This document shows, piece after piece, positions 1,002 through 44,250 of a DNA stretch of 64,000 nucleotides. The notes beneath the pieces are model-generated. The model ran no database searches. It saw only the letters and a list, made by a program, of their open reading frames with translations, and was not told the origin of the DNA. The stretch's first letter is position 1. Each line of letters opens with the position of its first letter. Source of the stretch: an uncultured bacterium (GTDB lineage Bacteria > Bdellovibrionota > JACOXK01 > 2-02-FULL-40-11); NCBI GenBank assembly GCA_964371555.1, contig CAYJMQ010000002.1, positions 5,521 through 69,520 on the forward strand, in the 5' to 3' direction. Made by a program: the position numbers and the translations under genes.

Positions 1002-1718
1002 TCAGGATGACCTCAGCCGGCTCAGGATGATCTCAGCCTTTTTGAGATCGGCTAATGTGTCGATATCGATAGATTCCTTTTCAGACATCGGATAATACAA
1101 TGTATTTTGGGTATAAAATCCTTCTTTTTTGAGTGTTCTTTCCGGAGCAATATAAATAGCGCCATTTGGCAGGTAATAGGTGGGGATCTGCTGTCGATTC
1201 ATTTCATTGTCTGAAATCCTGAAACAGAAATGAATATAGCCGCTCTTTTGCGCCGACATAAGCCAACCAAATTTTTTCGGGACTTCCTGCACGGAAACCA
1301 ATGTGTCATCGGGAGACTTTCGCTGTTTGAAATAGTATTCAATGGCGCTACGGATATGTTTTGAAGTTCTCAGCGGTGAAGTGGGTTGAAGTAAAATAAC
1401 ATAATCGTATCTTTTATTTTCATTCGAAAACAACCACTCCACACTATGCACGACTGCTTTATCAGCGGCAATTTTGTCACTTGCCAATGCTTTTGGGCGC
1501 AGAAATGGGACATCTGCCCCCGCTTTTCCGGCGATAGCCGCGATTTTGGAGGAGTCTGTTGAAACGACCACCCTGTCGATAAAAGGGACTTCAAGCGCCG
1601 CCTCAATCGACCAGGCAATGAGAGGCTTTCCGCAAAAATTGACAATATTTTTATCTTTCAGCCCTTTAGAACCCGATCTTGCTGGAATCACCGCCAAAAT
1701 TTTATTGCCTTTATACAT
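1002..1718 (-). CDS. nonulosonate/acylneuraminate cytidylyltransferase (CMP-sugar synthetase, CTP_transf_3; NeuA/PseF/LegF/KdsB-like)
   Basis: ORF 1002..1826 trimmed to Met at 1718 (MYKGNKILAVIPARSGSKGLKDKN), the typical N-terminal motif of CMP-NeuAc/CMP-Pse synthetases; starts right after the stop of the upstream gene. Confidence 0.75.
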   Translation of the reverse strand: MYKGNKILAVIPARSGSKGLKDKNIVNFCGKPLIAWSIEAALEVPFIDRVVVSTDSSKIAAIAGKAGADVPFLRPKALASDKIAADKAVVHSVEWLFSNENKRYDYVILLQPTSPLRTSKHIRSAIEYYFKQRKSPDDTLVSVQEVPKKFGWLMSAQKSGYIHFCFRISDNEMNRQQIPTYYLPNGAIYIAPERTLKKEGFYTQNTLYYPMSEKESIDIDTLADLKKAEIILSRLRSS

Positions 1719-1728
1719 CGTTGGGTCT

Positions 1729-3570
1729 CTAGATCCATTTTTTGAATTTATAGTAAGCGATGGCTGCATATTCATGAAATATCGCTTTGAGTTGTTGAAG
1801 ATTTGCATGATGAGATAGAGAATCAAAAAATAGGCTGCTTTCCACCGGTTTTAATAGAAAGGAAACATCGGATGGAAAATATTTTTCGGCCACAAGCCTT
1901 GCGCGTTTCATGTGATACGGGGAGCTCACAATAATGACTTTTTTTAGCCCCTCTCGCCGAATAAATTTTGAAAAATATTTGATGCTTTCATAGGTATTTC
2001 CTGAACGATCCTCGACAAAAATGTCTGTTTCTGGAACTCCCATCGCCAGGGCTAGGTTTTTCATCACCTGTGCTTCTTTCATCAAATAGACATAGCCGCT
2101 TGAAAAGATAATTTTTTTAACAAATCCCTGCTGGTAAAGACTGACGGCGGTTTTGACACGCTCCTGGTAACCCTGGCCGACAAGCCCCGATTCGCCTACC
2201 CCACCGCCGAGCGCCAGAACCGCATCGGCAGCGGCGAGCCTATCTTCGATTTTCAATGGTTGAGCGATGTAATAGGGGACTTTGGAATAAAAGAAGGTTG
2301 CATATCCTAAAATCAAGCAGGCGGATGCGAGAGCGATTTTTCGAGTGATTGCGTGATAAAGAATCTTGATCCGGTGTGACCAGTTCTTTTCAACCGCTTC
2401 ACTCTTTTCGAGAAGCTTTTGATCGATCAGCGAGAGCATCGATTCAATGCGTCGCTCCCATGAATTGGTTTTGGCGATTTCGACAAATTTTGGGGAGAAA
2501 GATATTTTTCCCCCAAGCTCATCCCGGATCATTACCACGAATTCTTCGGCTGTATCGGCAACCGAAACGACGTTGTCATGATTCTGATTAAAAAGCAGGA
2601 TTTCCTGGATCGGAGTCGAGATGACCTTTTTCCCCATGATGAGATATTCGTTGAGTTTTGTTGGATAGACGCTTTGAGTGTAAGGGGTAATGCGGTAGGG
2701 GATGAGACAGAGATCAGCATAAAATAGATAGTGTGACAGCTCCTCTTGGGACTTTTGAGGTATGAAGTGGAGATTTTTAAATCCCTTTAAATCTGAAACA
2801 TCTGTTTGAATCGGGCCAATAAAGACAAAGTTTATATCGGGTAGTTTTTTGAGAAGCTCTTTTACCAGGCGAAAGTCGATCCATCGATGGATTCCTCCGA
2901 TGTATACAATCCGGGGAGAGGGGATATCGGCAAGATCTATGGGTGGGGTGGAGAAGGTTTTTCCCAGATAATGAGTAAGGTCGACGCCAAAGGGGAAAAA
3001 AGAGACATTCGAATGATACTCAGAGCAGTAGTCGATGAGACGATGAGAGGTTGCAAAGACGAGATCAGCCTTTTTAAGCAGGGCGATTTCATCCCCCTTA
3101 ATTTTTTTCGCGCTTTTGGAGCTTTTTGAAAGATTGTCAATACAATAATAAATGAGAAGCTTCGGATCAATTTTTTTGACCATTTTCTGTGTCAGTCTTG
3201 TCGGAATGAAGGTCCAGACGATCGGTTTATGAAAAGAGAGCGCTTTTAACCATCGTTTAAGGCTGTTCCAAAAGATGATCGAATTTATGGCAAGCGCTCC
3301 CCTGGAGTATGGAAATGGCAGAAGAAGCGGTGAATAAATATAGAGATTTGGATGAATACGCCGGATGCCATAAACCCCTTTTCGAAAATTTTCAATTCGA
3401 TGTTTTAGACGACCCATGTCTTTAATTTTAGGCGATCGAATGCCGGTATTTTCAACGTAGAGAACCCGATGACCCTGTGAGGCGAGGGTTTGCATAATTT
3501 GTTGGTGACCTTGCCAGATGAACCCCCAGTCGATCGATGAAAAACAGATAATATCTTCTTTTGAAGGCAT
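1729..3570 (-). CDS. glycosyltransferase (GT-B-like N-terminal domain) fused through a TM helix to a C-terminal DUF218 (ElyC/SanA/YdcF-like) domain
   Basis: 613 aa ORF; the N-terminal 350 aa look like a GT1/GT4-type domain; a hydrophobic segment (LASACLILGYATFFY) is followed by DUF218-like motifs (IIFSSGY...VIIVSSPYHMKRA). Confidence 0.55.
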   Translation of the reverse strand: MPSKEDIICFSSIDWGFIWQGHQQIMQTLASQGHRVLYVENTGIRSPKIKDMGRLKHRIENFRKGVYGIRRIHPNLYIYSPLLLPFPYSRGALAINSIIFWNSLKRWLKALSFHKPIVWTFIPTRLTQKMVKKIDPKLLIYYCIDNLSKSSKSAKKIKGDEIALLKKADLVFATSHRLIDYCSEYHSNVSFFPFGVDLTHYLGKTFSTPPIDLADIPSPRIVYIGGIHRWIDFRLVKELLKKLPDINFVFIGPIQTDVSDLKGFKNLHFIPQKSQEELSHYLFYADLCLIPYRITPYTQSVYPTKLNEYLIMGKKVISTPIQEILLFNQNHDNVVSVADTAEEFVVMIRDELGGKISFSPKFVEIAKTNSWERRIESMLSLIDQKLLEKSEAVEKNWSHRIKILYHAITRKIALASACLILGYATFFYSKVPYYIAQPLKIEDRLAAADAVLALGGGVGESGLVGQGYQERVKTAVSLYQQGFVKKIIFSSGYVYLMKEAQVMKNLALAMGVPETDIFVEDRSGNTYESIKYFSKFIRREGLKKVIIVSSPYHMKRARLVAEKYFPSDVSFLLKPVESSLFFDSLSHHANLQQLKAIFHEYAAIAYYKFKKWI

Positions 3571-3666: not shown

Positions 3667-4599
3667 ATGAACTGTCTCGTCACAGGGGGAGCTGGATTTA
3701 TCGGATCTCACATTGTTCATGCCCTGCTTAAAAGGGGGGAGAACGTTGTCTTAATAGACAATTTTGAGACAGGCAAAAGGGAGAATCTGCTCCCCTTTCA
3801 AGGAAAAACGGAGATCATTGAAGGGGATATCCTCGATAAAGGGCTCCTTAAAGAAGCAATGAAAGGGATAGAGGTGGTGTTTCATCAGGCGGCGCTCAAA
3901 TTAGTCCCCGAATCGTTCGGAAAACCAGATCGTTATAATGATGTGAATATTCAGGGGACACTTTATCTTTTAGAAGCGGCCAAACGGGAAGGGATTCGAA
4001 AATTTGTCTATGCCTCATCGAGCTCGGTCTACGGAGACAATGAAAAACTTCCCAAATGCGAATCTGATCTGACCTCGCCTATTTCCCCCTACGCAGTGGC
4101 AAAGCTTGCGGCCGAACATTATTGTCAGGTTTTTACCAAAAATCATGAACTTCCGACAGTCTCTCTTCGATATTTTAATGTCTTTGGCCCCAGACAAACA
4201 GTCAATGATGGCTATTCCAATGTGATTCCTAAATTTATCAGCTGTTTTTTAAACAATAAACCGCTTCCGATCTATGGAGACGGCAGACAATCACGCGATT
4301 TTACTTACATTGACAATGTGGTGAATGCCAATTTGTTGGCTGCGGAAAAGCGGGATGTGACAGGCGTTTTTAACGTGGGGATGGGAGAACGCCATGATCT
4401 TTTAACGATTATTGAGATTTTGAAAAAGATTTTTAATCGAAAGCCGGAGATCCAGTATCTGCCGCCGCAAAAGGGGGATGTCAGACAGACGCTCGCTTCT
4501 GTTGAGTCTATTGAAAGGGAGTTGGGTTATCGATCGGTCCTCTCATTTGAGGAAGGGCTCCGAAAAACGGTTGATTGGTTTACTTCAATTCCAAAATGA
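3667..4599 (+). CDS. NAD-dependent epimerase/dehydratase (UDP-hexose 4-epimerase family)
   Basis: N-terminal Rossmann VTGGAGFIGSH, catalytic YAVAK (YxxxK), SSSSVYG; typical extended SDR. Confidence 0.8.
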   Translation: MNCLVTGGAGFIGSHIVHALLKRGENVVLIDNFETGKRENLLPFQGKTEIIEGDILDKGLLKEAMKGIEVVFHQAALKLVPESFGKPDRYNDVNIQGTLYLLEAAKREGIRKFVYASSSSVYGDNEKLPKCESDLTSPISPYAVAKLAAEHYCQVFTKNHELPTVSLRYFNVFGPRQTVNDGYSNVIPKFISCFLNNKPLPIYGDGRQSRDFTYIDNVVNANLLAAEKRDVTGVFNVGMGERHDLLTIIEILKKIFNRKPEIQYLPPQKGDVRQTLASVESIERELGYRSVLSFEEGLRKTVDWFTSIPK

Positions 4600-4638
4600 G
4601 TTTGATTTTAAAACCCGCCTCCTGTAATAATAAAAGTT

Positions 4639-5196
4639 GTGAGCCGGTTGAGAGTTCTACTGGTCTATCCCAATTATATGATGGTCAATCTTCTTCCTAC
4701 CAATATTGGGATCCTGACCGCCTGTCTCGTTCGCGAAGGATACGAAGTCGATCTTTTTGATACCACATTCTACCGGACGGCCGAAAAAAGCATTGATGAA
4801 ATGCGGACTGAAAACCTTCAATTTCGGAAGTTTGATTTGTCCGAGGTTGGTATTTTTTATAATGAAAATCCAGTCGATGCCGATTTCGTAAAAAAGGTGA
4901 GAGCGTTTAAACCCGATCTGATCGGGGTTTCCACCGTTGAAGACACATGGCCGCAGGCGCTCAAACTCCTTCATGCAATCCCGGAAACAGAGCGCCCCAA
5001 AGTGATCGTGGGGGGGATTTTCCCCACACTTGCCCCGGACATGGTCATTGGCGACAGCGCTGTCGATTATATCTGTATCGGAGAGGGGGAGGAGGCGCTG
5101 CTTGAGGTCTGTCGTGAACTTGAAAAGGGAAATGAACCGACCCGTGTCAAAATACCTGGGGGAAATCGGGGGGGAAGATTTTCAAGAACTGTATGA
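4639..5196 (+). CDS. B12-binding domain fragment of a class B radical SAM enzyme (N-terminal part, interrupted by a frameshift)
   Basis: Cobalamin-binding-domain-like sequence (LLVYPNY...DLIGVSTVED...VIVGGIFPT); reading frame terminates just after the G7 run at 5168-5174. Confidence 0.6.
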   Translation: MSRLRVLLVYPNYMMVNLLPTNIGILTACLVREGYEVDLFDTTFYRTAEKSIDEMRTENLQFRKFDLSEVGIFYNENPVDADFVKKVRAFKPDLIGVSTVEDTWPQALKLLHAIPETERPKVIVGGIFPTLAPDMVIGDSAVDYICIGEGEEALLEVCRELEKGNEPTRVKIPGGNRGGRFSRTV

Positions 5197-6212
5197 GACC
5201 CCCCATTCCATTGGAAGAGGTTCCGTTTGCCGATTTTACATTGTTTGAAGAGAAGCGTTTTTTTCGGCCGATGCAGGGAAAGATTTTTCGCATGCTCCCG
5301 ATTGAAACCGATCGGGGGTGCCCCTACACCTGCCGGTTTTGTGAGGCCCCTCAATTAAACAGAATTTATAGGACTGAGACTGCTTCGAGATATTTCAGGC
5401 GCAAAGACTGGAAATTGGTGCATGAAGAGCTTGGGCATTACGTGGAAAAATACAATATGCAGTACGTCTATTTCAACGCGGAAACATTCCTCGCCATGTC
5501 GCAGGAAGAGTTTGATCAGTTCATTGAGATCTACTCGGACTTTAAAATCCCCTTTTGGTGCCAGACGCGAATTGAAACGATTAATCTCGAAAAGTTGCGC
5601 CTCATGGAAAAGGTAAACTGCAACCGGATTTCAGTCGGTCTTGAGCATGGGAATGAGGAATTTCGGCGCAAGGTGGTCGGAAAGGGATTTACGAACCAGA
5701 TGATGATTGAAAATTTTAAACTCTTTGACAAAGTTTCAGTTCCAGTGTCGATCAATAATATTCTGGGCTTTCCAGACGAAACGCGGGAGATGGTCTTTGA
5801 TACAATCGAACTCAACCGGCATCTGACTACTGATAGTGTTAACGCCTATTATTTTGTCCCTTACCGGGGGACCCCGTTTTACGAGATTTGTCTCGAAAAG
5901 GGATACATTAGTAAAGATACTGTAACGAAGCCTCTCACCATGGGATCGTGTTTAAATATGCCGTATCTTTCATCAGAGCAAATTCAGGGTTTGGTCAGGA
6001 CATTCAGTCTTTATGTAAAATTTCCAAAATTTGATTGGCCTAAAATCAGAAGAGCGGAGAAGATGGATGAAGAGGGGAACCGTATTTTTAAGGAGCTTGC
6101 GGAAAAATATTATGAATATTTCTTTGATGATGACTTTAAGGCATACAGAAGGGCATGCTTCAATTCCCATATCTATCACTACCAGGTTCCCCAATATCTT
6201 GCGGCGTCCTAG
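5193..6212 (+). CDS. radical SAM domain fragment (C-terminal part of the same B12-binding radical SAM enzyme)
   Basis: CPYTCRFC (CxxxCxxC) cluster; in-frame upstream sequence (PIPLEEVPFADFTLFEE) continues the B12-rSAM linker without a start; adding one G to the G7 run fuses it to the 4639 ORF. Confidence 0.6.
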   Translation: MRPPIPLEEVPFADFTLFEEKRFFRPMQGKIFRMLPIETDRGCPYTCRFCEAPQLNRIYRTETASRYFRRKDWKLVHEELGHYVEKYNMQYVYFNAETFLAMSQEEFDQFIEIYSDFKIPFWCQTRIETINLEKLRLMEKVNCNRISVGLEHGNEEFRRKVVGKGFTNQMMIENFKLFDKVSVPVSINNILGFPDETREMVFDTIELNRHLTTDSVNAYYFVPYRGTPFYEICLEKGYISKDTVTKPLTMGSCLNMPYLSSEQIQGLVRTFSLYVKFPKFDWPKIRRAEKMDEEGNRIFKELAEKYYEYFFDDDFKAYRRACFNSHIYHYQVPQYLAAS

Positions 6213-6215
6213 GAT

Positions 6216-7070
6216 TTGATGGTTGAAGATCGAAAGATAATCAGTATCGATGAACTCTACGGAGTCTATAAAGAGGCCCGGGGGGATGAGTTGATTGTCG
6301 ATTTGCGTCCGGGGACCGACTACCGTGAAATGCATATTGAAGATTCTTTAAATATCCCCTTCAATCGATTGCAATTGGGATCTTTCGATCTCAAAAAAAT
6401 TAAACGCGCCTATGTGATTTGTAAATCGGGGAGTGAGGCGCCGATGGCGGCAAAGCAGATGGGGCGTCGCTACCCGGAAATTGAAATTTATTTTATCGCC
6501 CATGGCGGATTTGACGAGTGGGTTGAAAAAAAATATCCGCTGGTATCCGCTAAAGTTTTAAAACTCAAGAATGCGGTTGAGCTGGAGCAGAATGAGCCAG
6601 ATTTTATCAATTTAAAAAAAACGACCCGGTTGATCACTCAAGAGTGGAGATCGCGAGTTGAGGGAATAAATTATTTTAAAGATCATGAAAGGAATTGTTA
6701 TCTGATTTCAGACGTTAAACGCGGGGAGTCGATCCTGATCAATCCGCTGATCGAAATACACCATCATATTATCGATCAGATCGTGAGGCTTGACTGCGAG
6801 TGTGTGGCGATCTTGTATGATGAGCATCTTCGTTGGAATTTCAGTCCGCCTCCATCCGTGCATGCCAAAGACTTTTCGCAGCTTGTCAGAGGGAAATGTT
6901 ATTCTTTCTCTTCGGTTCATGCCTCGTCCCTCTGGTCAGGCGATCTCATTTCTATGACGGATGACAAGGGACACAACGGGATTCTCTACAAAGGAATTGC
7001 ATTTCATTGCAAACAGTTCTCTTCCCAGTCCTTTTCAAAGAGATCCGGGCTCTCTCTGGAAATTTGTTAG
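6216..7070 (+). CDS. rhodanese-domain protein with a degenerate metallo-beta-lactamase-like C-terminal region
   Basis: The first ~100 aa have the rhodanese fold with an active-site Cys loop (YVICKSGSEAP); the downstream NCYLISDVKRGESILINP resembles an MBL N-terminus, but the HxHxDH motif is not intact. Confidence 0.45.
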   Translation: MMVEDRKIISIDELYGVYKEARGDELIVDLRPGTDYREMHIEDSLNIPFNRLQLGSFDLKKIKRAYVICKSGSEAPMAAKQMGRRYPEIEIYFIAHGGFDEWVEKKYPLVSAKVLKLKNAVELEQNEPDFINLKKTTRLITQEWRSRVEGINYFKDHERNCYLISDVKRGESILINPLIEIHHHIIDQIVRLDCECVAILYDEHLRWNFSPPPSVHAKDFSQLVRGKCYSFSSVHASSLWSGDLISMTDDKGHNGILYKGIAFHCKQFSSQSFSKRSGLSLEIC

Positions 7071-7071
7071 A

Positions 7072-8565
7072 ATGCTTACACCCGAGGTCAAAAAATTAAC
7101 AGATGAATGCGCGCATCTTAGCGTTCGCATGGCAAATCGCATGTCGAAGCTCCAGTGCGATTTTTTAATCTGGGCATCTCCCATTTGTGCCAGAAATTAC
7201 GATGGAAGCTGGCTCTGGCATCCGCGATTCCTGAATAAAGGGATCAGCTATAAATTAGCTGTTTTTGTCTATAGTTTATTGCGGTATTCCCTTTCAGGCA
7301 TCCGAAGATTTTTCACCTACGGCGGCTTTACATTCATATACGAAAAAAAGGGCTCTTCCATGCTTCTTGTCATGCCTTTGGAAATTACAAGCGATTCAAA
7401 AGAATTTAAAACCTCTTATCTTATGGAGGATGAAAACCATCCTGTCGACAAGATAGTTTTTTCTCAATCGAAAAACCTTGGCAAGAGATATACCGCATTG
7501 ACCCCCTATGTGCGTTTTAAAATAACCCTTATTCTTCTCTATTTTCTTGTATGCGACCTGGGGCAGACACTTTTTTCAACGAAGATTACTTCAACTTATC
7601 TCGTCAGTTTCATGATTTTGACCAGGTGGTGTCTCTCGCAGGGTTGGTTTTTTCACTGGGATTTTTATTACTTTCTCGATAACATCTTGTCTTCAGAAAA
7701 TCCAAAATACCGGCGATTGATTTCTCTTCACGAAATGTATTTTTACTCCCGTTCGATATGGAAACTGGCAAATAAGCATCAATTAATCGGGGTGACAGCG
7801 CAACACGCGCTGATTGTCCCTGAACGGTTTTTGTGGTTTCGCCATCCTGTCGAGATAGAAGCGGGCTGTCCCGAGCCCGATATCTTTTTTGTCTATAACG
7901 ATTGGTCGAGAGATCTCTTTCGTCCGTATTATAAGCAAACAAAATTTCTGTTCTGCTGCAGCCCGCGTTTTAGTCATTGGAAATCAGATCATCTGATGAT
8001 GAATAGAGGGGGAGATCAAAAAGATGTGATCTTGTTTATGGGGAGTTCTATGTTTTTAGATATGATCGTCATTCTTTGCGCCATGAAGCGGCTTCTCAAA
8101 GAAGCGACAGAGCGTCGTTTTGTCTTAAGATTGAGATTGCATCCTCACGTGCATCTTCGAAAGATCGATCGGCTATGGATTGATCGGGCAAAGAAAAGGG
8201 GCTGGATTGAAGTCTCCCGGAACTCGTTGAAAGAAGACCTCGAGCATGCGGCGATTGTGGTTGGATGCAATTCGGCCGCGCTTCCGGAGTGCGTTTTGCT
8301 TGGCATTCCGACCCTCTCTATTTTCGATCCGGATGTCATTTGCCCTTCGATGATAGAGTCTTCCCCTGAATGGGAGATTTCTGCCAGAGAGATTACCTGG
8401 GAACGAATATTTCAGCAGATGAAAAAGGGATTTGAGCCGGTAATGACCGAAAACTTCAGGGGAAAAATGGGGCTCTATCAGCGGGACTTGACGACGGGGG
8501 TTATCGCAGAAGCGACAACATTTGCGAAGCGAACGGGGGCAGGTCATCCCCATAAACCCACCTAA
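7072..8565 (+). CDS. hypothetical protein; C-terminal region GT-B/TagF- or capsule-synthesis(KpsS/KpsC)-like
   Basis: Met at 7072 immediately after the upstream stop; the C-terminal segment (RLRLHPHVHL...VVGCNSAALPECVLLGIPTL) resembles CDP-glycerol glycerophosphotransferase/capsule synthesis folds; no firm family assignment. Confidence 0.35.
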   Translation: MLTPEVKKLTDECAHLSVRMANRMSKLQCDFLIWASPICARNYDGSWLWHPRFLNKGISYKLAVFVYSLLRYSLSGIRRFFTYGGFTFIYEKKGSSMLLVMPLEITSDSKEFKTSYLMEDENHPVDKIVFSQSKNLGKRYTALTPYVRFKITLILLYFLVCDLGQTLFSTKITSTYLVSFMILTRWCLSQGWFFHWDFYYFLDNILSSENPKYRRLISLHEMYFYSRSIWKLANKHQLIGVTAQHALIVPERFLWFRHPVEIEAGCPEPDIFFVYNDWSRDLFRPYYKQTKFLFCCSPRFSHWKSDHLMMNRGGDQKDVILFMGSSMFLDMIVILCAMKRLLKEATERRFVLRLRLHPHVHLRKIDRLWIDRAKKRGWIEVSRNSLKEDLEHAAIVVGCNSAALPECVLLGIPTLSIFDPDVICPSMIESSPEWEISAREITWERIFQQMKKGFEPVMTENFRGKMGLYQRDLTTGVIAEATTFAKRTGAGHPHKPT

Positions 8566-12364: not shown

Positions 12365-12370
12365 AAATAG

Positions 12371-35254: not shown

Positions 35255-35256
35255 TT

Positions 35257-35943: not shown

Positions 35944-36028
35944 TTCTATTAAATGCAGAGAAATCCTATTTTAAAAGATACTGGGAGTCAATGCTAACTT
36001 ATTTTATGGGCCTAGATGGGAGCGTCCG

Positions 36029-36478: not shown

Positions 36479-37512
36479 GGTTTTATCCAGAAATAATCTG
36501 AATCCAGTTTCTTATCCCGGATGAGGGATTGAATTTTTTTTGTCCGAAAATATCGATCCGATTTAAAAGTGTTCATTGTGAGATCATATTTTTGATAGGC
36601 ATCAATCAACTCCCTAATCCCCTGTTTCAGATTCCATTGTGGCTCAAATTCGCTGAACGATTGACGAATTTTTGTGAAATCAACCCGGTATGTCCGCTCA
36701 TCCTTCTCATTTTCATTGAGAATTTTTAAGCGGGTTCCAGGCAGCTCTCTCTGGATTTGAACAGCAATGTCTTTAATTTGATAATTTTCATTGTTGAATC
36801 CCACATTAAATGTCTGATTGTCAATTTTTTCGATGGGCGCCTTTAGCACCGTTAAAAACGCCCTGCAAAAATCTGCAATATGAATCAGCGGTCTCCAGGG
36901 GGTGCCATCGCTTTTGACGACAATTTCTCCGGTCAAAAGCGCCATTGCGACAAGTTGGTTCACAACCAGATCGAGCCGAAGTCTTGGGGAAACGCCATAG
37001 ACGGTGGCGTTTCGAAGGAGCGTCGGATGAAAATCGCAAGTGGCAAGCTGGCTTAAAGCGCCTTCCGCGGCGACCTTGCTCTTTGCGTAAGCGGTCTGGG
37101 GATTGAGGGCGTCGTTTTCTGTCAAAAAATCGCCGCGCGATGCAATTCCATATAAACTGCAGGAGGAGGCAAAAATGAATCTTTTAATTTTTAGTTCCCT
37201 GCAATAAGAGGCAAGTCTCAGCGTTGCTTTATAATTGATCTCATTTGTCAATGCCTCATTCATTTCTCCAAGCGGATCATTTGACAGGGCTGACAGATGG
37301 ATAACAGCTTGGACTCCATCAAGATCTTTTGCGTCGATATGACGAATATCTTTCTTGATCTGCCTGTCTGGCTTCGATTGAGCATCGGTCTTAAAAAAAA
37401 CGGATTCCTGAAAAAAACCGGTATCGAGTCCAATGACTTCATACGATGCCTTTTTCAGGATTTTTGTCATGACGGTTCCAATATATCCGAGATTGCCGGT
37501 TAAGAGGATCAT
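36475..37512 (-). CDS. NAD-dependent epimerase/dehydratase family protein
   Basis: ILLTGNLGYIGT Rossmann, YAKSKVAAE (YxxxK). Confidence 0.75.
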   Translation of the reverse strand: MILLTGNLGYIGTVMTKILKKASYEVIGLDTGFFQESVFFKTDAQSKPDRQIKKDIRHIDAKDLDGVQAVIHLSALSNDPLGEMNEALTNEINYKATLRLASYCRELKIKRFIFASSCSLYGIASRGDFLTENDALNPQTAYAKSKVAAEGALSQLATCDFHPTLLRNATVYGVSPRLRLDLVVNQLVAMALLTGEIVVKSDGTPWRPLIHIADFCRAFLTVLKAPIEKIDNQTFNVGFNNENYQIKDIAVQIQRELPGTRLKILNENEKDERTYRVDFTKIRQSFSEFEPQWNLKQGIRELIDAYQKYDLTMNTFKSDRYFRTKKIQSLIRDKKLDSDYFWIKP

Positions 37513-38594
37513 CCCTTTCTCCCTCCTGCATTTTTAAAAAGTGTTACAAATTTGGGTGCCTGAACTTTGAGTGAATAGAATTGCTCAACCGTTTTTCTTC
37601 CTGCCTCGGCCATCCGATTTCTCAGATCGGGCGAAGAGAGTAAAAGGGAGAGTTTTTCTATCCATTCTTCCTTACGCTTTACGAGAAAACCGTTGTGGCC
37701 GTTCCGGATGATTTCCCTGTTTCTACCGATATCGGAAGCGACGCAAACGGCATGCGCGGACATATACTGAACCGGCTTAAATCCGGTTTTTCCTTTCACC
37801 CATTCGTTGTCAGGAAGGGGATAGACGCCGATATCGAGACTTTGAAATTCCCCGATTTCATCTTCCAGTCTCCATTCAGGTTGATCGAGATCGACGTTCA
37901 AGAGCGCTATTTTCTTTGGCGCGCCGACAATTTTTAAAACAAAATCGTGGTTTTTAGAAAGCGTCGGAAAGAGATCCAAAATTTCTTCAAGATATGGAAA
38001 TGTCGTGTGGCTCCCAATCCATCCAATAACCGGCTTTTGACGCGGCCTGCTCTCTCTTTTTTGATAGAGAGAGGTATCAACAGAGGTGGGAATAATCGTT
38101 ATATTTTGGGGATCCTGAAATCCTGAGGCGTAATTTTTTAAATAGTCATTACAGACAATGGTGTGAGAACTCATCGACGCAAGCCTCGCGATTTTCCTGT
38201 CGGATTTAAAGATTTTTCGAATGAAAGAAACCGATCCCTCTTTCTTCATAAAAATCGCGTCATCGAGGTCGTAAATCAGCGGCTTCTTTAGAAATCTTGC
38301 GAGACGCTCAAGGAGAAGAATGGGGAAAGGGGAAGATTCAAGATGAACGCAAATGATGTCGTACCTTGGAAGATTGATGAGATCGAGGAGCCTTCTTGCA
38401 ATCGCCCCCCCAAGGTAGAATATCTTCTTTGCCAAATACCCTTTTTTGTAAACGATCTTATAGAATCGCGAAGAAATAAATGAGCTGACTTTATAATCTA
38501 TATTCTCTTTTTTGAGATAGGGTAGAAATTGATGAATCCGGTATCTGTAGCTTGCGCCTTCAATTGGATATGGAACGAGAAAAAGAACCCGCAT
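37509..38594 (-). CDS. GT4 family glycosyltransferase (GT-B)
   Basis: The C-terminal region (MSAHAVCVASDIGRNREIIRNGHNGFLV) is the GT4 EX7E region; translationally coupled to its neighbours. Confidence 0.7.
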   Translation of the reverse strand: MRVLFLVPYPIEGASYRYRIHQFLPYLKKENIDYKVSSFISSRFYKIVYKKGYLAKKIFYLGGAIARRLLDLINLPRYDIICVHLESSPFPILLLERLARFLKKPLIYDLDDAIFMKKEGSVSFIRKIFKSDRKIARLASMSSHTIVCNDYLKNYASGFQDPQNITIIPTSVDTSLYQKRESRPRQKPVIGWIGSHTTFPYLEEILDLFPTLSKNHDFVLKIVGAPKKIALLNVDLDQPEWRLEDEIGEFQSLDIGVYPLPDNEWVKGKTGFKPVQYMSAHAVCVASDIGRNREIIRNGHNGFLVKRKEEWIEKLSLLLSSPDLRNRMAEAGRKTVEQFYSLKVQAPKFVTLFKNAGGRKG

Positions 38595-38601
38595 AACAAA
38601 A

Positions 38602-39708
38602 CTATTTGTTCATGGTTAATGAATTACGGTCATCTGTCAAGTATCTGAATGTTCTTACGCAGGCCTCGAGATGATGAACCGAGTTGGAATAAAATCGATT
38701 TTTGAAGCACTTCAGGCGATAGAGCGGTTCCCTAAGATTGCACCATTGATGTTTGTAAAATCGCTGATAGCCATACCAGTTATAGTAGCTATCGCCATGT
38801 TCATCGATCTCCCGAATGATCTCTTCAATTAATAAATATCCGGGTCTCAGATGTTTAAAGCGATAATTAAAGGCGGTCAGCGCCCAGTGAAATCCCTTTC
38901 CAAAGCGATAGGCAAAACTTACGGCCAATATTTCATTCCCGGCTTTCAAAATATGGGCATCCAATCTCTGATTTTTTTCCATGATTTTCAAAAAATCTTT
39001 AAAAAAACTTACATATCTTGAATCGAGAAAAGCGCTTTTCTTCCCCCTGTTGTGAAAAGATTCTTGTGATAGGCGGACATATACTTCGAAATATTTCTCT
39101 ATCTCTTTTTCACCGGAGATTCGGATCAGAATAGGGGCCCCTAATTCCCTTGTCGCGCGTCTTCTTCGTGATCGTAAATCGCGTTTCAGTTTTCCTGGAA
39201 TTGTGCTCAAATACGCCTCTCTCCCCTGTTCCAAACCGATCGCCCAGTTGTCATGGTCGTGAATTGCCCGAACTACCATCTGGTTATCATCAAACGTTTT
39301 TAAATTGTAAGACATTAAGGGATGAGAGTGGCGAACATCTTTTAAATAGAGCAGATCGACATCGCCTCGAAGTCCAATCGTTTTAAAGAATAGAGATGGC
39401 GAAACCGATTTGGAAAGGCACGGTTCCGTGTAGTTTGCGGCCCCATCTCCAATGTAAGCCAGTGTGCGAAGAAACCCATATCGAAAAGAGCGTTTCCCCA
39501 TGTAGAGAGGGATCCCCCCCTGAATCCGGTTGTCTTCAGAAAAAATGAGAAACCGAAATGACAGGCCTGTCTGGTAATATTTCCAGCACGTCAAAATAAA
39601 ATCCGACAACAAAAATGGATTATAGACATTCTCTTGAATTAAAAATTTATCCCACGACGATGCAATCTCTTCAAATTGTCTGGGATTCTCTAACCAGATA
39701 GATTCCAT
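38602..39708 (-). CDS. FemAB/CelD-like GNAT acyltransferase (Acetyltransf_6 family), paralog 1
   Basis: 368 aa; architecture and motifs (ANYTEP, LRPGYLLIEEIIRE) shared with the paralog at 42371..43504. Confidence 0.55.
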   Translation of the reverse strand: MESIWLENPRQFEEIASSWDKFLIQENVYNPFLLSDFILTCWKYYQTGLSFRFLIFSEDNRIQGGIPLYMGKRSFRYGFLRTLAYIGDGAANYTEPCLSKSVSPSLFFKTIGLRGDVDLLYLKDVRHSHPLMSYNLKTFDDNQMVVRAIHDHDNWAIGLEQGREAYLSTIPGKLKRDLRSRRRRATRELGAPILIRISGEKEIEKYFEVYVRLSQESFHNRGKKSAFLDSRYVSFFKDFLKIMEKNQRLDAHILKAGNEILAVSFAYRFGKGFHWALTAFNYRFKHLRPGYLLIEEIIREIDEHGDSYYNWYGYQRFYKHQWCNLREPLYRLKCFKNRFYSNSVHHLEACVRTFRYLTDDRNSLTMNK

Positions 39709-39844
39709 TCTTTTTTCTCAGCTTTCTAATAAGCAGCGCCATAATCACAATAATAATGAATGTGCGCAAATGCTTTTTACCGCTCATCTGCCCCTTCTTA
39801 ATGCTTTCCCTTTGGCACAATTTTCGATATACCGATTAAGAAAA

Positions 39845-40732
39845 ATGTCTTTGGTCAAAAAGAGAATGCTTGTGACTGGAAGTGCGGGGATGGTCGGCGC
39901 CTATGCTTCCGCTCTCTTCGCTGACTATGAGCTTTATTTAACGGATCTCTACTTTGAAGATTGGGAAACTTCCAAACTGGATGTGACAAACAAAGAAGAG
40001 ACGCTCTCCACCGTTAAAAAAATAGATCCCGACGTTGTGCTTCATCTTGCCGCGGCAACAGATGTCGACCGGTGCGAAAGGGATCCTTTTTATGCCTACC
40101 TCTCAAATGTGGTTGGAACCCAGCATGTTGCCGAAGCATGCAGGGAAAACGATTCTATGATGGTCTATATCAGCACCGGGGCGGTGTTTGACGGCGCCCG
40201 CAGGGAGCCCTATACGGAAAATGATCTTGCCAATCCGTCAACCGTTTATGGTCTTTCGAAATGGCTTGGAGAAAAAATGACCTCATTCATTCTACGGAAA
40301 TATTTGATTATCCGGGCCGGCTGGATGTTTGGCGGCGGGGTGAAAGACAAGAAGTTTGTTGGAAAAGTCGCGCAGATGATATTAAAGGGAGAGAAGAGAT
40401 TGAAGGTGGTCGATGATAAATTTGGGAGTCCGACCTATGCGAAAGATTTGTTAAAAACGGTCAAATCACTATTGGATCAAGAGAGTTTTGGGATCTTTCA
40501 CGCGGTGAATGGAGGGGGATGTTCGAGATACGATATTGCAAATGAAATCAGGGCTATTTTGGAAGCGAATGATGTGACGATTGAGCCGGTTAAATCGGAC
40601 GCATTTAAACTCGATGCCCCCAGAGGGTTCTCTGAACAGCTATTGAATTGCAGACTGGCAGATGTGGCGGGTGTTTCGATGAGGGGATGGCAGGAGGCGC
40701 TAAAAGAGTATCTCAGTCTGGAATGGATGTGA
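39845..40732 (+). CDS. dTDP-4-dehydrorhamnose reductase-like NAD(P)-dependent oxidoreductase (RmlD family)
   Basis: MLVTGSAGMVG, YGLSKWLGE (YxxxK in RmlD context); ORF 39770..40732 trimmed to Met at 39845. Confidence 0.65.
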   Translation: MSLVKKRMLVTGSAGMVGAYASALFADYELYLTDLYFEDWETSKLDVTNKEETLSTVKKIDPDVVLHLAAATDVDRCERDPFYAYLSNVVGTQHVAEACRENDSMMVYISTGAVFDGARREPYTENDLANPSTVYGLSKWLGEKMTSFILRKYLIIRAGWMFGGGVKDKKFVGKVAQMILKGEKRLKVVDDKFGSPTYAKDLLKTVKSLLDQESFGIFHAVNGGGCSRYDIANEIRAILEANDVTIEPVKSDAFKLDAPRGFSEQLLNCRLADVAGVSMRGWQEALKEYLSLEWM

Positions 40733-41433
40733 AGTATAAAGGGTTTAAAATCTTTTTGGTTATTTTTGTTTCTCTGCTGTTTCTTTTGATCCTCAATTTC
40801 AAGGTAACCACGAAACAGGGGATCAATACCGTTGTCACAAAGAGGAAAACCCCGCTTTATTTGAAAGGGATATCATTTCTTGCCCGTCATTATGAGACCC
40901 AATATCTCGCAGAATCGATCACTGCATCTCAAAATTCTGATCAAAGAAAAATCGAAGCCATTTTTGAATGGACTCTGAAAAATGTCAGGCATCAGCCGGG
41001 CAATTTACCGGTGATAGATGATCATCCGTGGCATATCATTGTCCGGGGATATGGGGCGTCTGATCAGATCAACGATGTTTTTTCTTTGTTGTGCGTCTAC
41101 AATGGCTTTAAATCGTATTATCAATTACTCAAAGACCGTGAGCAACGAAGACATCCGATCTCTTTTGTGTTTGTGGAAGGACGGTGGGTGCTCTTTGATG
41201 TTTGCCATGAAACGTATTTTCTCAATGAGCAGTCGCGCTGGGCATCGCTATCGGAATTGCGTGTTGGCCGGTTTCGGGTCGTTTCCGGGCATCCCAGCGA
41301 TATAGATAAATCGGAATATTCCTATATGTTCCGGTTTGTGGAATTCGATGCGTCGGGATTAAAACGAAATTATATGCAGATGCCGGTGGAAAGAATCTGG
41401 ATCGGCATGAAATTGTTGTTTACTAAAAGTTGA
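40723..41433 (+). CDS. hypothetical membrane-anchored protein
   Basis: ORF trimmed to MDVKYKGFKIFLVIFVSLLF (signal anchor); weak resemblance to transglutaminase-like folds, catalytic Cys not evident. Confidence 0.3.
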   Translation: MDVKYKGFKIFLVIFVSLLFLLILNFKVTTKQGINTVVTKRKTPLYLKGISFLARHYETQYLAESITASQNSDQRKIEAIFEWTLKNVRHQPGNLPVIDDHPWHIIVRGYGASDQINDVFSLLCVYNGFKSYYQLLKDREQRRHPISFVFVEGRWVLFDVCHETYFLNEQSRWASLSELRVGRFRVVSGHPSDIDKSEYSYMFRFVEFDASGLKRNYMQMPVERIWIGMKLLFTKS

Positions 41434-42371
41434 TTTTCATCATGGGCGACAAAACATTTACAGTGATTCTTGCCACCTTTAACCGGCGGGATCTTTTGCC
41501 AAGAGCGATTCAGAGTGTTTTACATCAGTCTTATGAAGATTTTGAGCTTTTGGTGATTGACAACGGATCAACGGATGACACACGGTCTATTGTGGAACGG
41601 ATAAAAGATGAAAGATTGAGCTACCTTCTAAACTCCCCGCCGACCCGATCGTGCGACGCGCCCAGAAATTTGGGGATCGCGGCGGCAAATGGCAATTATA
41701 TCTGCTTTCTCGATGATGACGATATCTGGTATCCCCAAAAATTGGAAAAAGTGAAGCGGGTGTTTGATCAATATCCCGATGTTGGCGTCGTTTGCCATTA
41801 CGAAAATCAGCGTAACAACGGCAGGATAGATCGTGTTTTGAAACATGGGCCGTTTCGCCCCCATTTTTATGAATACCTGCTTTATGAAAGGAATTGTCTC
41901 TCCCCATCTGCGATGGTGATCAGGAAAGAAATTCTTGTGAGGCTTGGCGGCTTTGACTTGCGGCCAGAGATTGAACTCGCTTCTGATTATGAATGCTGGC
42001 TTCGGATGGCAGAAAAGGGAATAAAAATTCATTTTATCCCAGAGCCTTTGGGTGAGTTTTCACTGACCGGCTACAATGGGTATAGCGTAAATGCCGATTT
42101 TCACCTTCGGGTCGCTTATTTTGTGAGAGAACAGATATTGCGGCATGAAAAAAAGCCCTATTTCCGAATCTCAAAAAGGGGAGCGAAGAGATTGGCCGGG
42201 CTCTATCTGACCGCAGCTTTGGACCTCTTTAAGGCAAGGTGTTACCGGGCTTCCCTCAAGACGATTCTTCGCATTGTCGGTTTAATTTCTTTTAGACCCC
42301 AGCTTACGATCGAATTCTTTTTAAAACTGGGGAAACTGGGCCAAAAAGTTGTCCAGAGGGTTTCCATATAA
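41430..42371 (+). CDS. GT2 family glycosyltransferase
   Basis: FTVILATFNRRDLL...VIDNGSTDDT...CFLDDDD motifs. Confidence 0.75.
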   Translation: MIFIMGDKTFTVILATFNRRDLLPRAIQSVLHQSYEDFELLVIDNGSTDDTRSIVERIKDERLSYLLNSPPTRSCDAPRNLGIAAANGNYICFLDDDDIWYPQKLEKVKRVFDQYPDVGVVCHYENQRNNGRIDRVLKHGPFRPHFYEYLLYERNCLSPSAMVIRKEILVRLGGFDLRPEIELASDYECWLRMAEKGIKIHFIPEPLGEFSLTGYNGYSVNADFHLRVAYFVREQILRHEKKPYFRISKRGAKRLAGLYLTAALDLFKARCYRASLKTILRIVGLISFRPQLTIEFFLKLGKLGQKVVQRVSI

Positions 42372-43504
42372 TGATCAGCTACCGATGGATAGATCGGATT
42401 GAAGATTTTCATGAAATAGCGAATGAGTGGGACAGCCTTCTTCTTTCTAAAAGGGCTAAAAGGGCTAAAGTGGCCGAAGAGGATAATTTTTTCCTCCTTT
42501 CCGATTTTATATTAACCTGGTGGAAATACTATCAGAGTGGGCGACGGCTCAGCATATTGGCCTTTTATGAAAAACAAAAATTAATCGGTGGAATTCCCCT
42601 GTGCATTAAAAGAGAGGGGATAAAGTGCGGGGGGCTTCGATTTATGACCCATCTTGGAGAGGTTGCGGCCAATTATACAGAGCCCTTTTTTTGCGCCCCA
42701 AAAGACATTTTTTTTTCTGTCTTTGAAAAGGCGCTTCAGGCGAGAGGGGATTGGGATATTCTTTTTTTGACCGATCTCAGGCATCGGCATTTTTGTGTTT
42801 CCGGTTTTCAGACAAGAGCCTATCCCTTTATTTTTCCATACCATGAGGCTGAACAGGGAATGAATTGGTCGATCGATATCTCTTGCGGTTTCGAAAAATA
42901 TCTTCAGTCGCTCAGCGGGAGATTTAAGAAAGATCTGCGATTAAGACGGAGACGCCTTTTGGAACAGCGGGGGGAGATTCGGCTGGTCGAGATATCTGGA
43001 AGGGGAGATATTGAAAAACATTTTGATATGTATGCCGATTTTTCAAAGACGAGTTTTGATGGCCGCGGGGGGGAGAGCAATTTTACAGATCCGTTATACC
43101 GCGCCTTTTTCAGGGAATTTCTGGTTTTAATGGATGAAAAAAAGAGACTGAGCTGCCATGCCCTTTTGGCAGGGGATCAGGTTTTGGCGATAGCCTTTGG
43201 CTATCGGTTACGGAACGAATTGAACCTCGTGCTCACAAGCTTTAATCTGCATCTTAAAGAATACCGACCCGGTTATCTCCTCATTGAAGAGATGATTAAA
43301 AAAGTCGATGCCACTCAGGAGACCTCTTTCAATATGTTTGGCGGCGAACGGTTTTATAAGCGGCAATGGGGTAATCGCGTTGAACCGCTTTATCAGATAA
43401 AAATTTATAGAAACCGCGGGATTCAGTATATAGATGAAGGCCTCCAGTGGGGAAAAAAAGTAAAAAATGCAATATTAAAGAAGTCTCAAGAGAGATGGGT
43501 ATAA
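42371..43504 (+). CDS. FemAB/CelD-like GNAT acyltransferase, paralog 2
   Basis: About 35-40% identical by eye to 38602..39708 (LLSDFILTWWKYYQ, ANYTEPF, RPGYLLIEE). Confidence 0.55.
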   Translation: MISYRWIDRIEDFHEIANEWDSLLLSKRAKRAKVAEEDNFFLLSDFILTWWKYYQSGRRLSILAFYEKQKLIGGIPLCIKREGIKCGGLRFMTHLGEVAANYTEPFFCAPKDIFFSVFEKALQARGDWDILFLTDLRHRHFCVSGFQTRAYPFIFPYHEAEQGMNWSIDISCGFEKYLQSLSGRFKKDLRLRRRRLLEQRGEIRLVEISGRGDIEKHFDMYADFSKTSFDGRGGESNFTDPLYRAFFREFLVLMDEKKRLSCHALLAGDQVLAIAFGYRLRNELNLVLTSFNLHLKEYRPGYLLIEEMIKKVDATQETSFNMFGGERFYKRQWGNRVEPLYQIKIYRNRGIQYIDEGLQWGKKVKNAILKKSQERWV

Positions 43505-44250
43505 GTATGCCGAAATCTCTGATAATAGGTGTAGCAACTTAAGATTGCGACAATAGAGATTCCAACCGATGCCAGAAATGTTGTTGAAATCGGAACGAGA
43601 TAATTTGAGCCAGCTGAAAAAAGTGGGCTGAGTATCGACGTTACCCCGATCCAGACAATCCGTTCCGATCGCTGCATGATGCCAATTCTTCCAGCCACAT
43701 CCATTCCTTCCGAGCGCGCTTTTGAATAGCTCACCATCAAAGAGCCTGTGAAGGCGACAAAAACGACATAAAAAAAGAGGGTATTTGCGTAAAAATTAAA
43801 AAGCCCCAAAAACCAAAGGCACTCGCTCAGCCGATCAAGGTTGGAGTCTAAAAATTCTCCCCGCTGGCTTGTCATTCTCAATCTTCGCGCCACCCGTCCA
43901 TCGAGCATGTCACAAAAGCCGCTGATGACAACAGACCATCCTGCCAGAACAAACCCGCCGAAACTATAGAAAATGCAGGCGAGCAGCGCAAAAAAGAGAC
44001 CCGCCCAACTGATGTGGATCGGGGCTACTTTTCTTTTGACGAGAAACTCTTCGATTGGAGATACAAGCTGAACCCCCCATTCCCTGCTTGTCCGGTTGAG
44101 CATAAAGGAATCGGGGATATTGGCGAGCTCGGAATCGCGCCTGTGTTTTTCTTTCTGAAAGAAGAGAAAATAGAGAAAGTGTCCGCCAAAACCGATTGTA
44201 ATAACAGCATAAACCCAGAACAGAATGTTCAAATTCCAGCCTGCAAACAT
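43486..44250 (-). CDS. CDP-alcohol phosphatidyltransferase family protein
   Basis: DMLDGRVARRLRMTSQRGEFLDSNLDR matches D(x)2DG(x)2AR...G(x)3D(x)3D; six TM helices. Confidence 0.65.
   Translation of the reverse strand: MFAGWNLNILFWVYAVITIGFGGHFLYFLFFQKEKHRRDSELANIPDSFMLNRTSREWGVQLVSPIEEFLVKRKVAPIHISWAGLFFALLACIFYSFGGFVLAGWSVVISGFCDMLDGRVARRLRMTSQRGEFLDSNLDRLSECLWFLGLFNFYANTLFFYVVFVAFTGSLMVSYSKARSEGMDVAGRIGIMQRSERIVWIGVTSILSPLFSAGSNYLVPISTTFLASVGISIVAILSCYTYYQRFRHTYTHLS

Follow-up and report, generated by a model that had tools for sequence, protein, structure and literature searches.

A probable composite cell-surface glycan region with three class-B-architecture radical SAM genes in an uncultured bacterium

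Three radical SAM genes in a mosaic of sugar cassettes

The region described here covers positions 1002–44250 (43 kb) of a 64,000-nucleotide stretch (the window) of contig CAYJMQ010000002.1, assembled from an uncultured bacterium (GCA_964371555.1). About 30 sugar-pathway genes surround three radical S-adenosylmethionine (radical SAM; rSAM) genes, rSAM1, rSAM2, and rSAM3 (Table 1), bearing out the enrichment in class-B-architecture (B12-binding-type) enzymes that an earlier reading of the bare DNA (the original prediction) had pointed to. We consider the region to be, with fair probability, a composite cell-surface glycan locus made of at least three independently recurring cassettes (A, B, and C), each with one class-B-architecture rSAM of a different uncharacterized family. 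What had been taken for one island is thus a mosaic of separately recurring cassettes on alternating strands. For the comparison of gene neighborhoods we used loci and contigs that bear homologs (L001, L002, and so on), and the Pfam screen covered nearly all open reading frames (ORFs) of at least 100 amino acids (aa) in the window.

All three proteins possess a radical SAM core with the CxxxCxxC motif (C228/232/235 in rSAM1, C227/231/234 in rSAM2, C221/225/228 in rSAM3). The class-B B12-binding domain (PF02310) exceeds its gathering score in rSAM1 (62.7 bits) and rSAM2 (64.6 bits), and the rSAM3 match reaches 22.5 bits versus 32.1. All three B12-binding rSAM genes originally proposed lie at the stated coordinates and have the motif and the Radical_SAM domain; however, rSAM1 is frameshifted, and rSAM3 has a sub-threshold B12 domain and a cobalamin-free protein, AprD4, as its nearest match. 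Given a pairwise identity of 23–24%, the three are old paralogs rather than products of local amplification, and each belongs to a separate widespread family with more than 1000 strong homologs. Further cysteines are conserved in 91–100% of ~120 homologs per family (C29, C146, C328, and C507 in rSAM1; C8, C118, and C316 in rSAM2; C25, C253, C280, and C315 in rSAM3).

Table 1 Gene blocks and genes of the region. Blocks were delimited by gene spacing and strand; GT, glycosyltransferase; SDR, short-chain dehydrogenase/reductase; TM, transmembrane.
Feature	Position	Strand	Basis or remark
Block: pair, divergent	1002–3570	-	
PseF-like CMP-ulosonic/nonulosonic acid cytidylyltransferase	1002–1826	-	Pfam CTP_transf_3, 91.5 bits; NCBIfam PseF, 151 (cut-off 205.7)
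GT1/GT4-type glycosyltransferase–DUF218 fusion	1729–3570	-	Pfam DUF218, 93.9 bits; Glyco_trans_1_4, 26.5 bits
Block	3667–8565	+	
SDR sugar epimerase/dehydratase (TviC/GalE-like), opens rSAM1 block	3667–4599	+	Pfam Epimerase, 229.6 bits; syntenic in L009, 86% identical
rSAM1, B12-binding radical SAM gene, frameshifted	4639–6212	+	ORFs 4639–5196 and 5193–6212
Rhodanese-domain protein	6216–7070	+	Pfam Rhodanese, 36.2 bits
534-aa protein, weak DUF6716 (putative glycosyltransferase)	6961–8565	+	Pfam, E=0.0033; syntenic in L009, 76% identical
Block: HEPN/MNT pair	8586–9531	-	
HEPN/MNT-nucleotidyltransferase toxin-antitoxin pair	8586–9531	-	Pfam HEPN, 38.3 bits; NTP_transf_2, 39.8 bits
Block of 11 genes	9750–22443	+	Gaps of at most 78 nt
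DmpG-type (HMGL-like) pyruvate aldolase fused to MptE-like/DUF115 domain, opens 11-gene block	9750–11441	+	Pfam HMGL-like, 78.3 bits
GT2 with two C-terminal TM helices, sugar-1-phosphate nucleotidyltransferase, LegB-like 4,6-dehydratase	11438–14153	+	Pfam/NCBIfam
GT-C type (PMT_2) polytopic glycosyltransferase	14146–15780	+	PMT_2, 39.5 bits (cut-off 26.1); 12 hydrophobic segments
Two small membrane proteins and GT2	15859–17807	+	Order 146 aa, GT2, rSAM2 repeated in sister contig L047
rSAM2, intact B12-binding radical SAM enzyme, 583 aa	17852–19603	+	Pfam B12-binding, 64.6 bits; Radical_SAM, 66 bits
591-aa GT-B-fold protein without Pfam family, rSAM2 partner	19625–21400	+	Neighborhood conservation
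Ldh_2-family 2-hydroxy/2-oxo-acid dehydrogenase, rSAM2 partner	21397–22443	+	Pfam Ldh_2, 345.9 bits
Block	22561–24369	-	
GT-C-like membrane protein, 602 aa	22561–24369	-	PMT_2, 24.9 bits, just under cut-off; 38–45% identical in L004, L049
Block with ATGA overlap	24437–27363	+	
Sugar-1-phosphate nucleotidyltransferase fused to AglJ/dolichyl-phosphate-hexose-transferase-like GT2	24437–25912	+	Stop overlaps rSAM3 start (ATGA)
rSAM3, radical SAM with Rossmann-like N-domain, HpnJ/AprD4-like	25909–27363	+	Pfam Radical_SAM, 95.3 bits
Block of 11 genes	27342–39708	-	
Two family-less polytopic membrane proteins (433 and 520 aa)	27342–30202	-	520-aa protein 37–45% identical in L004, L005, L049
SAM-dependent methyltransferase and GT2	30165–31791	-	Pfam
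VTC-domain protein, CotH-kinase-like 872-aa protein, DUF4956 membrane protein	31861–35943	-	Pfam
RmlC-like cupin, SDR epimerase, GT4, FemAB-like acyltransferase (Acetyltransf_6)	36029–39708	-	Pfam/NCBIfam
Block	39770–43504	+	
RmlD reductase, transglutaminase-like protein, GT2, second Acetyltransf_6	39770–43504	+	RmlD, 233 bits (cut-off 224)
Block	43486–44250	-	
CDP-alcohol phosphatidyltransferase, right border	43486–44250	-	Membership of locus uncertain

A frameshifted rSAM1 next to a rhodanese-domain gene

In cassette A, the B12-binding match of rSAM1 lies in the first of its two ORFs and the Radical_SAM match (67.4 bits; Pfam) in the second, which is read in another frame and meets the first in an ATGA overlap. 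DNA alignment traces the lesion to the deletion of a single A in the run at 5149–5152, which reads GTC-AAAATA here versus GTCAAAAATA in L009, a sister-species locus whose intact ortholog is 93% identical. At the protein level, homologs read '...VKNIWGK...' across the junction, and the window has 'RVKIPGG' in frame 1 and 'QNTWGKSGGKIFKN' in frame 3. Because the break comes down to one missing A relative to an intact ortholog, rSAM1 is not a naturally split enzyme, and a programmed frameshift was ruled out on the same grounds. The family counts more than 3,400 homologs, and 120 of the 120 listed are encoded as one continuous polypeptide, with lengths of 520–575 aa in nearly every case; P0241 (523 aa, 93% identical) is the nearest among the matches listed. 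The copy in the window is either a pseudogene or the product of a homopolymer sequencing error, so that in cassette A as it stands here rSAM1 would be inactivated or mis-sequenced. A rSAM1-family homolog in a Gammaproteobacteria metagenome-assembled genome (MAG; L027, 9866–11547) is also split into two overlapping ORFs; therefore, breaks in genes of this family arise elsewhere, too.

The epimerase, rSAM1, rhodanese-domain, and 534-aa protein genes keep their order in L009 at 76–93% identity, and a rhodanese-domain gene directly follows the rSAM1 ortholog in L009, L010, and L011, the closest clade, which includes Oligoflexia MAGs. More distant homologs (57–61% identity) occur in Acidobacteriota, Nitrospirota, Dehalococcoidia, and Chloroflexota, where they are flanked by epimerases, CTP_transf_3 proteins, SPASM-domain rSAMs, SDRs, 2-hydroxyacid dehydrogenases, FkbM-type methyltransferases, GT2s, and nucleotidyltransferases. 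All 21 species-representative genomes that match the rSAM1 profile are MAGs, none of them cultured. The rhodanese-domain protein has a candidate active-site loop, C69-KSGSEA, and a C-terminal part of ~180 aa without a family; going by this domain, sulfur transfer beside a radical SAM enzyme is conceivable. The true start of the 534-aa protein probably lies later than the position given in Table 1. The HEPN/MNT pair sits exactly where the rSAM1 block meets the block of cassette B.

rSAM2 and its dehydrogenase and GT-B partners

Cassette B (9750–22443) contains rSAM2, the C-terminal region of which is hydrophobic and conserved. An Ldh_2 dehydrogenase adjoins rSAM2 orthologs (at least 53% identity) in six independent contexts (L001, L002, L032, L033, L043, and L047), the exception to this pairing being a homolog of 50% identity (L039); in the window, the Ldh_2 gene lies two genes downstream. 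The 591-aa GT-B-fold protein accompanies rSAM2 in L001, L002, L032, and L047. Profile searches of its family against PDB sequences returned no match, hhalign found no significant similarity to the neighboring 534-aa and 614-aa proteins, and Pfam recognized only a weak DUF6716 in 12 of 40 members; the window protein itself has a weak BFO_1060 match.

One relative, L032, lies on a 1.87-Mb contig, where the genes run as follows: polysaccharide deacetylase, formyltransferase, another B12-rSAM, NeuB, UDP-GlcNAc 2-epimerase (NeuC-type), PglD-like acetyltransferase, an unknown gene, GFO_IDH_MocA, Ldh_2, rSAM2, CTP_transf_3, KARI, SDR, 2-Hacid_dh, GT2–CTP_transf_3, the homolog of the 591-aa protein, an ABC transporter, and a SPASM rSAM. 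By its gene content, L032 is a nonulosonic-acid (NulO) locus. In the window, the aldolase half of the fusion that opens the block resembles 4-hydroxy-2-oxovalerate aldolases and the PDB entry 3dxi ('putative aldolase', 5e-40) and retains intact RDG and HxH motifs, and the MptE-like/DUF115 half scores 23.2 bits, under the Pfam cut-off. HMGL-like proteins of 572–637 aa resembling this fusion are also found in L002 and L005.

With NulO pathways the window has in common the PseF-like cytidylyltransferase, the LegB-like dehydratase, the DUF115-like domain, and the GT-B protein with its BFO_1060 match, but it lacks NeuB and NeuC, and all of these matches are sub-threshold. We know of no rSAM in any described NulO pathway. 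Maf proteins, which contain the DUF115 domain, are putative legionaminyl/pseudaminyl transferases, with Maf4 a putative legionaminyl transferase (PMC9298399), and Tanf_01245 transfers a derivative of pseudaminic acid (PMC5420450).

Together with the PseF-like gene at 1002–1826, cassette B might make and install a tailored, CMP-activated sugar of the (non)ulosonic-acid type. The aldolase would join pyruvate to a sugar aldehyde to give a 3-deoxy-2-ulosonic acid, possibly replacing NeuB; the PseF-like enzyme would activate the product, and rSAM2 and Ldh_2 would act as a tailoring pair.

rSAM3 and its nucleotidyltransferase–GT2 fusion

In cassette C (22561–31791 and 36029–43504), rSAM3 has a conserved companion, the nucleotidyltransferase–GT2 fusion, which stands directly upstream of the rSAM3 ortholog in L005, L048, L049, and L050 (63–65% identical). 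Around this pair, the four loci harbor a PMT_2-type protein of 600–625 aa, membrane proteins of ~510 and ~450 aa, a methyltransferase, and a small GT2, as well as DegT, one or two Acetyltransf_6 proteins, Polysacc_deac_1, several GT2/GT4 genes, and an RmlD-like reductase; L004 holds most cassette C genes. The window retains the PMT_2-like protein, the fusion, rSAM3, the 520-aa membrane protein, the methyltransferase, the GT2s, the GT4, both Acetyltransf_6 proteins, and RmlD, rearranged across two strands and with a VTC/CotH/DUF4956 triad inserted that is not in the syntenic loci L004, L005, L049, and L050. Several close rSAM3 homologs carry PF04055 alone in precomputed annotation.

The AlphaFold model of rSAM3, built with 34 homologs (predicted local distance difference test, pLDDT, 90.9; predicted template-modeling score, pTM, 0.90), shows an alpha/beta domain at the N-terminus, followed by a TIM-barrel core and by helices at the C-terminus. 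Foldseek ranked AprD4 first (template-modeling score 0.75/0.80), and MgmA, TsrM, OxsB, CysS, and TokK scored 0.62–0.71. A lack of the cobalamin-binding fold would have counted against the original prediction; the fold is present, including in the N-terminal domain of this model.

By NCBIfam, the fusion resembles AglF joined to AglJ, dolichyl-phosphate-hexose transferase, PpgS, or ArnC, the AglJ-like match reaching 96.6 bits versus a cut-off of 325. Owing to this resemblance, its output is likely a polyprenyl-phosphate sugar. Such sugars are the donor type of GT-C enzymes. The window is reminiscent of polyprenyl-phosphate-sugar/GT-C systems (ArnC/ArnT, GtrB/GtrC, archaeal AglJ, PpgS), with an AglJ/PpgS/ArnC-like GT2 half and PMT_2/ArnT-type GT-C proteins, one above the PMT_2 cut-off (in cassette B) and one just below it, and the loci of rSAM3 relatives share DegT and the deacetylase with the Arn pathway; unlike in those systems, the GT2 shares a polypeptide with a nucleotidyltransferase and is translationally coupled to an rSAM, and the window has neither DegT nor the deacetylase.

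The ATGA coupling and the affinity of rSAM3 to AprD4 and HpnJ together suggest a radical dehydration or rearrangement of an activated sugar. In the proposed sequence, the fusion would make a nucleoside-diphosphate (NDP) sugar and from it a polyprenyl-phosphate sugar, which rSAM3 would alter not by methylation but by AprD4/HpnJ-type radical chemistry, either a dehydration/deoxygenation or a rearrangement of the ring, and GT-C-type membrane enzymes would then transfer the sugar on the periplasmic side. In the relatives of cassette C, DegT may aminate the keto group left by the rSAM3 reaction.

Known families and the question of methylation

Sequence comparison places the three enzymes near, and outside, curated families. 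HpnJ (TIGR03471) is the best NCBIfam model for rSAM3, over nearly its full length (213 bits versus 577.6), and for the core ORF of rSAM1 (88 bits), and rSAM2 matches BchE best (129 bits versus 481). The closest PDB entries by sequence are AprD4 (6FD2, 6e-25) for rSAM3, again AprD4 for the repaired rSAM1 sequence (4.8e-12), and QCMT/MgmA (9CCB, 4.6e-12) for rSAM2. Against the BchE model (TIGR02026) the three proteins obtain 129, 125, and 59 bits, and against that of the AprD4 family (NF033070) 95, 57, and 40 bits versus 500, despite the high fold similarity; the methylase models HpnR (20–71 bits versus 650) and PhpK (57–103 versus 600) are likewise far from reached. The Rfam scan detected no cobalamin riboswitch in the window, and we are aware of no sequence motif that would be diagnostic of cobalamin binding by class-B rSAMs.

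The proposed substrate of HpnJ is a lipid-linked sugar, bacteriohopanetetrol glucosamine, whose glucosamine ring the enzyme would contract; like BchE and OxsB, HpnJ is not a methylase (PMC9204698). The window differs from the HpnJ setting in that it has no hopanoid genes and its rSAM3 partners are the nucleotidyltransferase–GT2 fusion and GT-C proteins. AprD4, the 1,2-diol dehydratase of apramycin, is nearest to rSAM3 in both sequence and fold, has the same two-domain architecture of a Rossmann-like and an rSAM part, and acts on a sugar; yet it does not bind cobalamin (PMC12931638), its substrate is a free aminoglycoside of secondary metabolism, and no AprD3-like partner was identified in the window. 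GenK, GenD1, Fms7, and MoeK5, which we compared by description only, are class-B rSAMs that act on sugars (PMC9204698), whereas the window enzymes stand in primary surface-glycan-type loci and have non-methylases as their best matches.

The original prediction had envisaged a heavily C-alkylated sugar. That three methylcobalamin-dependent C-methyltransferases of the GenK/Fom3/HpnP type jointly produce such a branched sugar appears unlikely to us, even if rSAM1 and rSAM2 have clear PF02310 domains, the best PDB match of rSAM2 is a methylase, partial matches extend to the PhpK, RiPP (ribosomally synthesized and post-translationally modified peptide) C-methyltransferase, and KedN5 models, and methylation is the commonest class-B reaction (PMC9204698). 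rSAM3 and the rSAM1 core match AprD4 and HpnJ best, the B12 domain of rSAM3 is sub-threshold, rSAM1 is broken here, and no methylase cut-off is reached; moreover, since each enzyme has a cassette and partners of its own and the three share 23–24% identity, they do not form a team working on one sugar. As the closest matches, AprD4, HpnJ, and BchE, are non-methylases, C-methylation is just one option and not the leading one for rSAM3, for which a dehydratase or rearrangement activity is more probable.

The same matches to HpnJ and BchE, along with one to a ladderane-lipid rSAM, raise the question of whether the enzymes instead have membrane lipids (hopanoid-, ladderane-, or ether-lipid-like), cofactors, or peptides as substrates, with the sugar genes mere neighbors. 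The hydrophobic C-terminal region of rSAM2, the phosphatidylinositol-phosphate (PIP)-synthase-like gene at the right border, and a rSAM3 homolog outside any sugar locus (L006) would fit such a role, which we nevertheless hold to be rather improbable: all scores are 3- to 5-fold under the family cut-offs, and in many phyla orthologs of at least 50% identity lie inside blocks of sugar-nucleotide genes, where stop and start codons frequently overlap. A hopanoid, bacteriochlorophyll, or RiPP cluster was ruled out because the window contains no companion genes for one (squalene-hopene cyclase, hpn, bch, RiPP precursor/peptidase). The locus is accordingly of the glycan type, as first proposed, with no hpn, shc, or bch families among the Pfam-screened ORFs.

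Recurrence of multi-rSAM sugar loci

When ~22 distinct related loci with a length of 14 kb or more were compared, seven had at least two B12-type rSAM genes within ~21 kb, so the arrangement, which had been thought unusual, is not confined to the window; L001 (1049–17794 of a 146-kb metagenomic contig) has four B12-binding rSAMs and one SPASM rSAM within 17 kb of a CTP_transf_3-rich sugar locus. This is a denser rSAM cluster than that in the window. At least two homologs of the window's sugar genes occur in 20 of the 31 related loci that span 10 kb or more (a conservative count), the counter-examples being more distant homologs such as L006 (45%). The relatives span Omnitrophota, Nitrospirota, Chloroflexota, Acidobacteriota, and Oligoflexia-like MAGs. 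Conserved neighborhoods in these other genomes support the view that the clustering exceeds chance. As a rough guide, presuming an assumed frequency of 15 such genes per 3000, one would expect ~0.2 per 40 genes, with P(≥3) of ~0.001.

In the literature that we searched, nothing ties B12 or radical SAM enzymes to polysaccharide, capsule, O-antigen, lipopolysaccharide, or nonulosonic-acid pathways, in agreement with the earlier remark that no capsule or O-antigen pathway of this kind has been described. With seven of ~22 loci containing multiple rSAMs and no paper in the searched literature, the configuration is recurrent yet undescribed; multi-rSAM sugar arrangements are undescribed rather than rare. 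A hypothetical equivalog of B12-binding rSAMs, TIGR04295 ('B12_rSAM_oligo'), does not include the window proteins (48–59 bits versus 400). Its short name may point to an oligosaccharide context, in which case curators have already noticed such an association.

A canonical Wzx/Wzy or ABC-type O-antigen or capsule locus was ruled out: no family of initiating transferase, flippase, polymerase, or exporter was detected, the Pfam search of 1–44250 giving no match to Bac_transf, Glycos_transf_4, Polysacc_synt, Wzy_C, Wzz, or ABC2.

Genomic setting and further genes

The part of the window right of the region holds pilMNOPQ, an AsmA-family gene, gatA/gatB, aroB, and aroC, and the host is a diderm bacterium. 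The closest relatives by marker genes are all MAGs, namely 'uncultured bacterium binchicken_co248_740' (93% identity), 'uncultured Oligoflexia bacterium' (71% and 62%), and 'Deltaproteobacteria bacterium' (91%, from a partial protein); the nearest relatives of the host are thus labeled Oligoflexia or 'Deltaproteobacteria'.

Could the three rSAMs have been brought together by the assembly of a chimeric MAG contig? The rSAM1 frameshift, a pilQ gene without its secretin domain abutting aroC, and the lack of any other record of the exact rSAM2 protein lean that way. However, sister-population contigs (L009, L047, and L048) repeat the local order around all three rSAMs at 92–93% identity, other loci hold up to four such genes within 17 kb, and GC content (~0.39–0.47 throughout) shows no step at the region borders, where tRNA scan and repeat search detected no tRNA genes, long repeats, or mobile-element marks. 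We regard an artifact as very improbable.

The accessory gene counts of the original prediction were roughly right. There are five GT2 and two GT1/GT4-type genes, hence seven rather than 'more than 7', besides two large GT-B-like proteins, and the GT-C-like set comprises four polytopic membrane proteins, with only one above the PMT_2 cut-off and another just under it. Three SDR epimerase/dehydratases, one RmlD above the NCBIfam cut-off, one RmlC-like cupin, one PseF-like cytidylyltransferase, and one methyltransferase complete the set. Newly recognized were the HEPN/MNT pair, the VTC/CotH/DUF4956 triad, the HMGL-aldolase/DUF115 fusion, the Ldh_2 dehydrogenase, the rhodanese-domain protein, two FemAB-like acyltransferases, and the PIP-synthase-like gene. 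A lenient Pfam search assigned nothing to the remaining membrane and small proteins.

The best NCBIfam matches of the border gene at 43486–44250 are archaetidylinositol-phosphate synthase (134 bits, cut-off 180) and phosphatidylinositol-phosphate synthase (100 bits, cut-off 170), hinting at inositol phospholipid synthesis beside the glycan region. At the left edge of the window lies an ATP-sulfurylase gene (4–885, + strand); the window has no sulfotransferase, and L002 (276–5669) carries a sulfotransferase and a PK/APS-kinase fusion beside its rSAM2 module. Sulfated glycans are possible in this group. The pilQ-like gene (47011–48555, - strand) stops just past Secretin_N (residues 459–513 of 514) without a C-terminal secretin domain, and aroC starts 6 nt beyond it; either pilQ is truncated or the assembly has a join here. 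At 57609–58263 (+ strand), a TumE toxin-like ORF and the HVO_A0114-family ORF after it probably make up a second toxin-antitoxin pair.

Proposed roles and significance

The analysis shows the domain content, the frameshift, the conserved partnerships, and the folds. As we infer their substrates, chemistry, and cobalamin use, the three rSAMs most likely perform oxygen-independent tailoring of activated sugars. Several observations weigh against this reading. None of the rSAMs reaches an NCBIfam family cut-off, every curated match being far under it, and the fold of rSAM3 suits an enzyme with or without bound cobalamin. A 45%-identical rSAM3 homolog in a Melainabacteria MAG (L006) lies outside any sugar locus. 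DegT aminotransferase and polysaccharide deacetylase, encoded 3′ of rSAM3 in four relatives, are missing from the window, so cassette C either is incomplete here or works differently. No NeuB-type synthase turned up in the Pfam screen of the window, and the PseF and DUF115 matches are sub-threshold; by the usual marks of a NulO locus, NeuB and a CMP-NulO synthetase above cut-off, the window therefore does not qualify, and the ulosonic-acid reading of cassette B leans on the relative L032 and on the presumed aldolase reaction. The predicted fold of the 591-aa protein suits a transferase or a NeuC-like hydrolyzing epimerase equally. Finally, the region gave no match to an initiating phosphoglycosyltransferase, to Wzx/Wzy, or to an ABC exporter, and two of its polytopic proteins are family-less.

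Class-B radical SAM enzymes form a very large, mostly uncharacterized group, and their known sugar-modifying members belong to antibiotic or hopanoid pathways. The window and its relatives point to three conserved families in surface-glycan loci, each with a fixed partner gene. Tentatively, and with more reserve than for the composite region itself, we suggest that they could be three new families of oxygen-independent sugar-tailoring radical enzymes for the primary surface glycans of bacteria that are uncultured and for the most part anaerobic; rSAM3 would be the first AprD4/HpnJ-like dehydratase or ring-rearranger acting on an NDP- or polyprenyl-phosphate sugar, rSAM2 with Ldh_2 the first case of rSAM tailoring of a CMP-(non)ulosonic-type sugar, and the resulting monosaccharides new to glycan databases. 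The conserved pairs (nucleotidyltransferase–GT2 fusion/rSAM3; Ldh_2/rSAM2/GT-B protein; rSAM1/rhodanese-domain protein) offer expressible test systems. If the proposal is true, these loci would harbor new monosaccharide chemistry and show a route by which anaerobes arrive at modifications that aerobes make by oxygenases.

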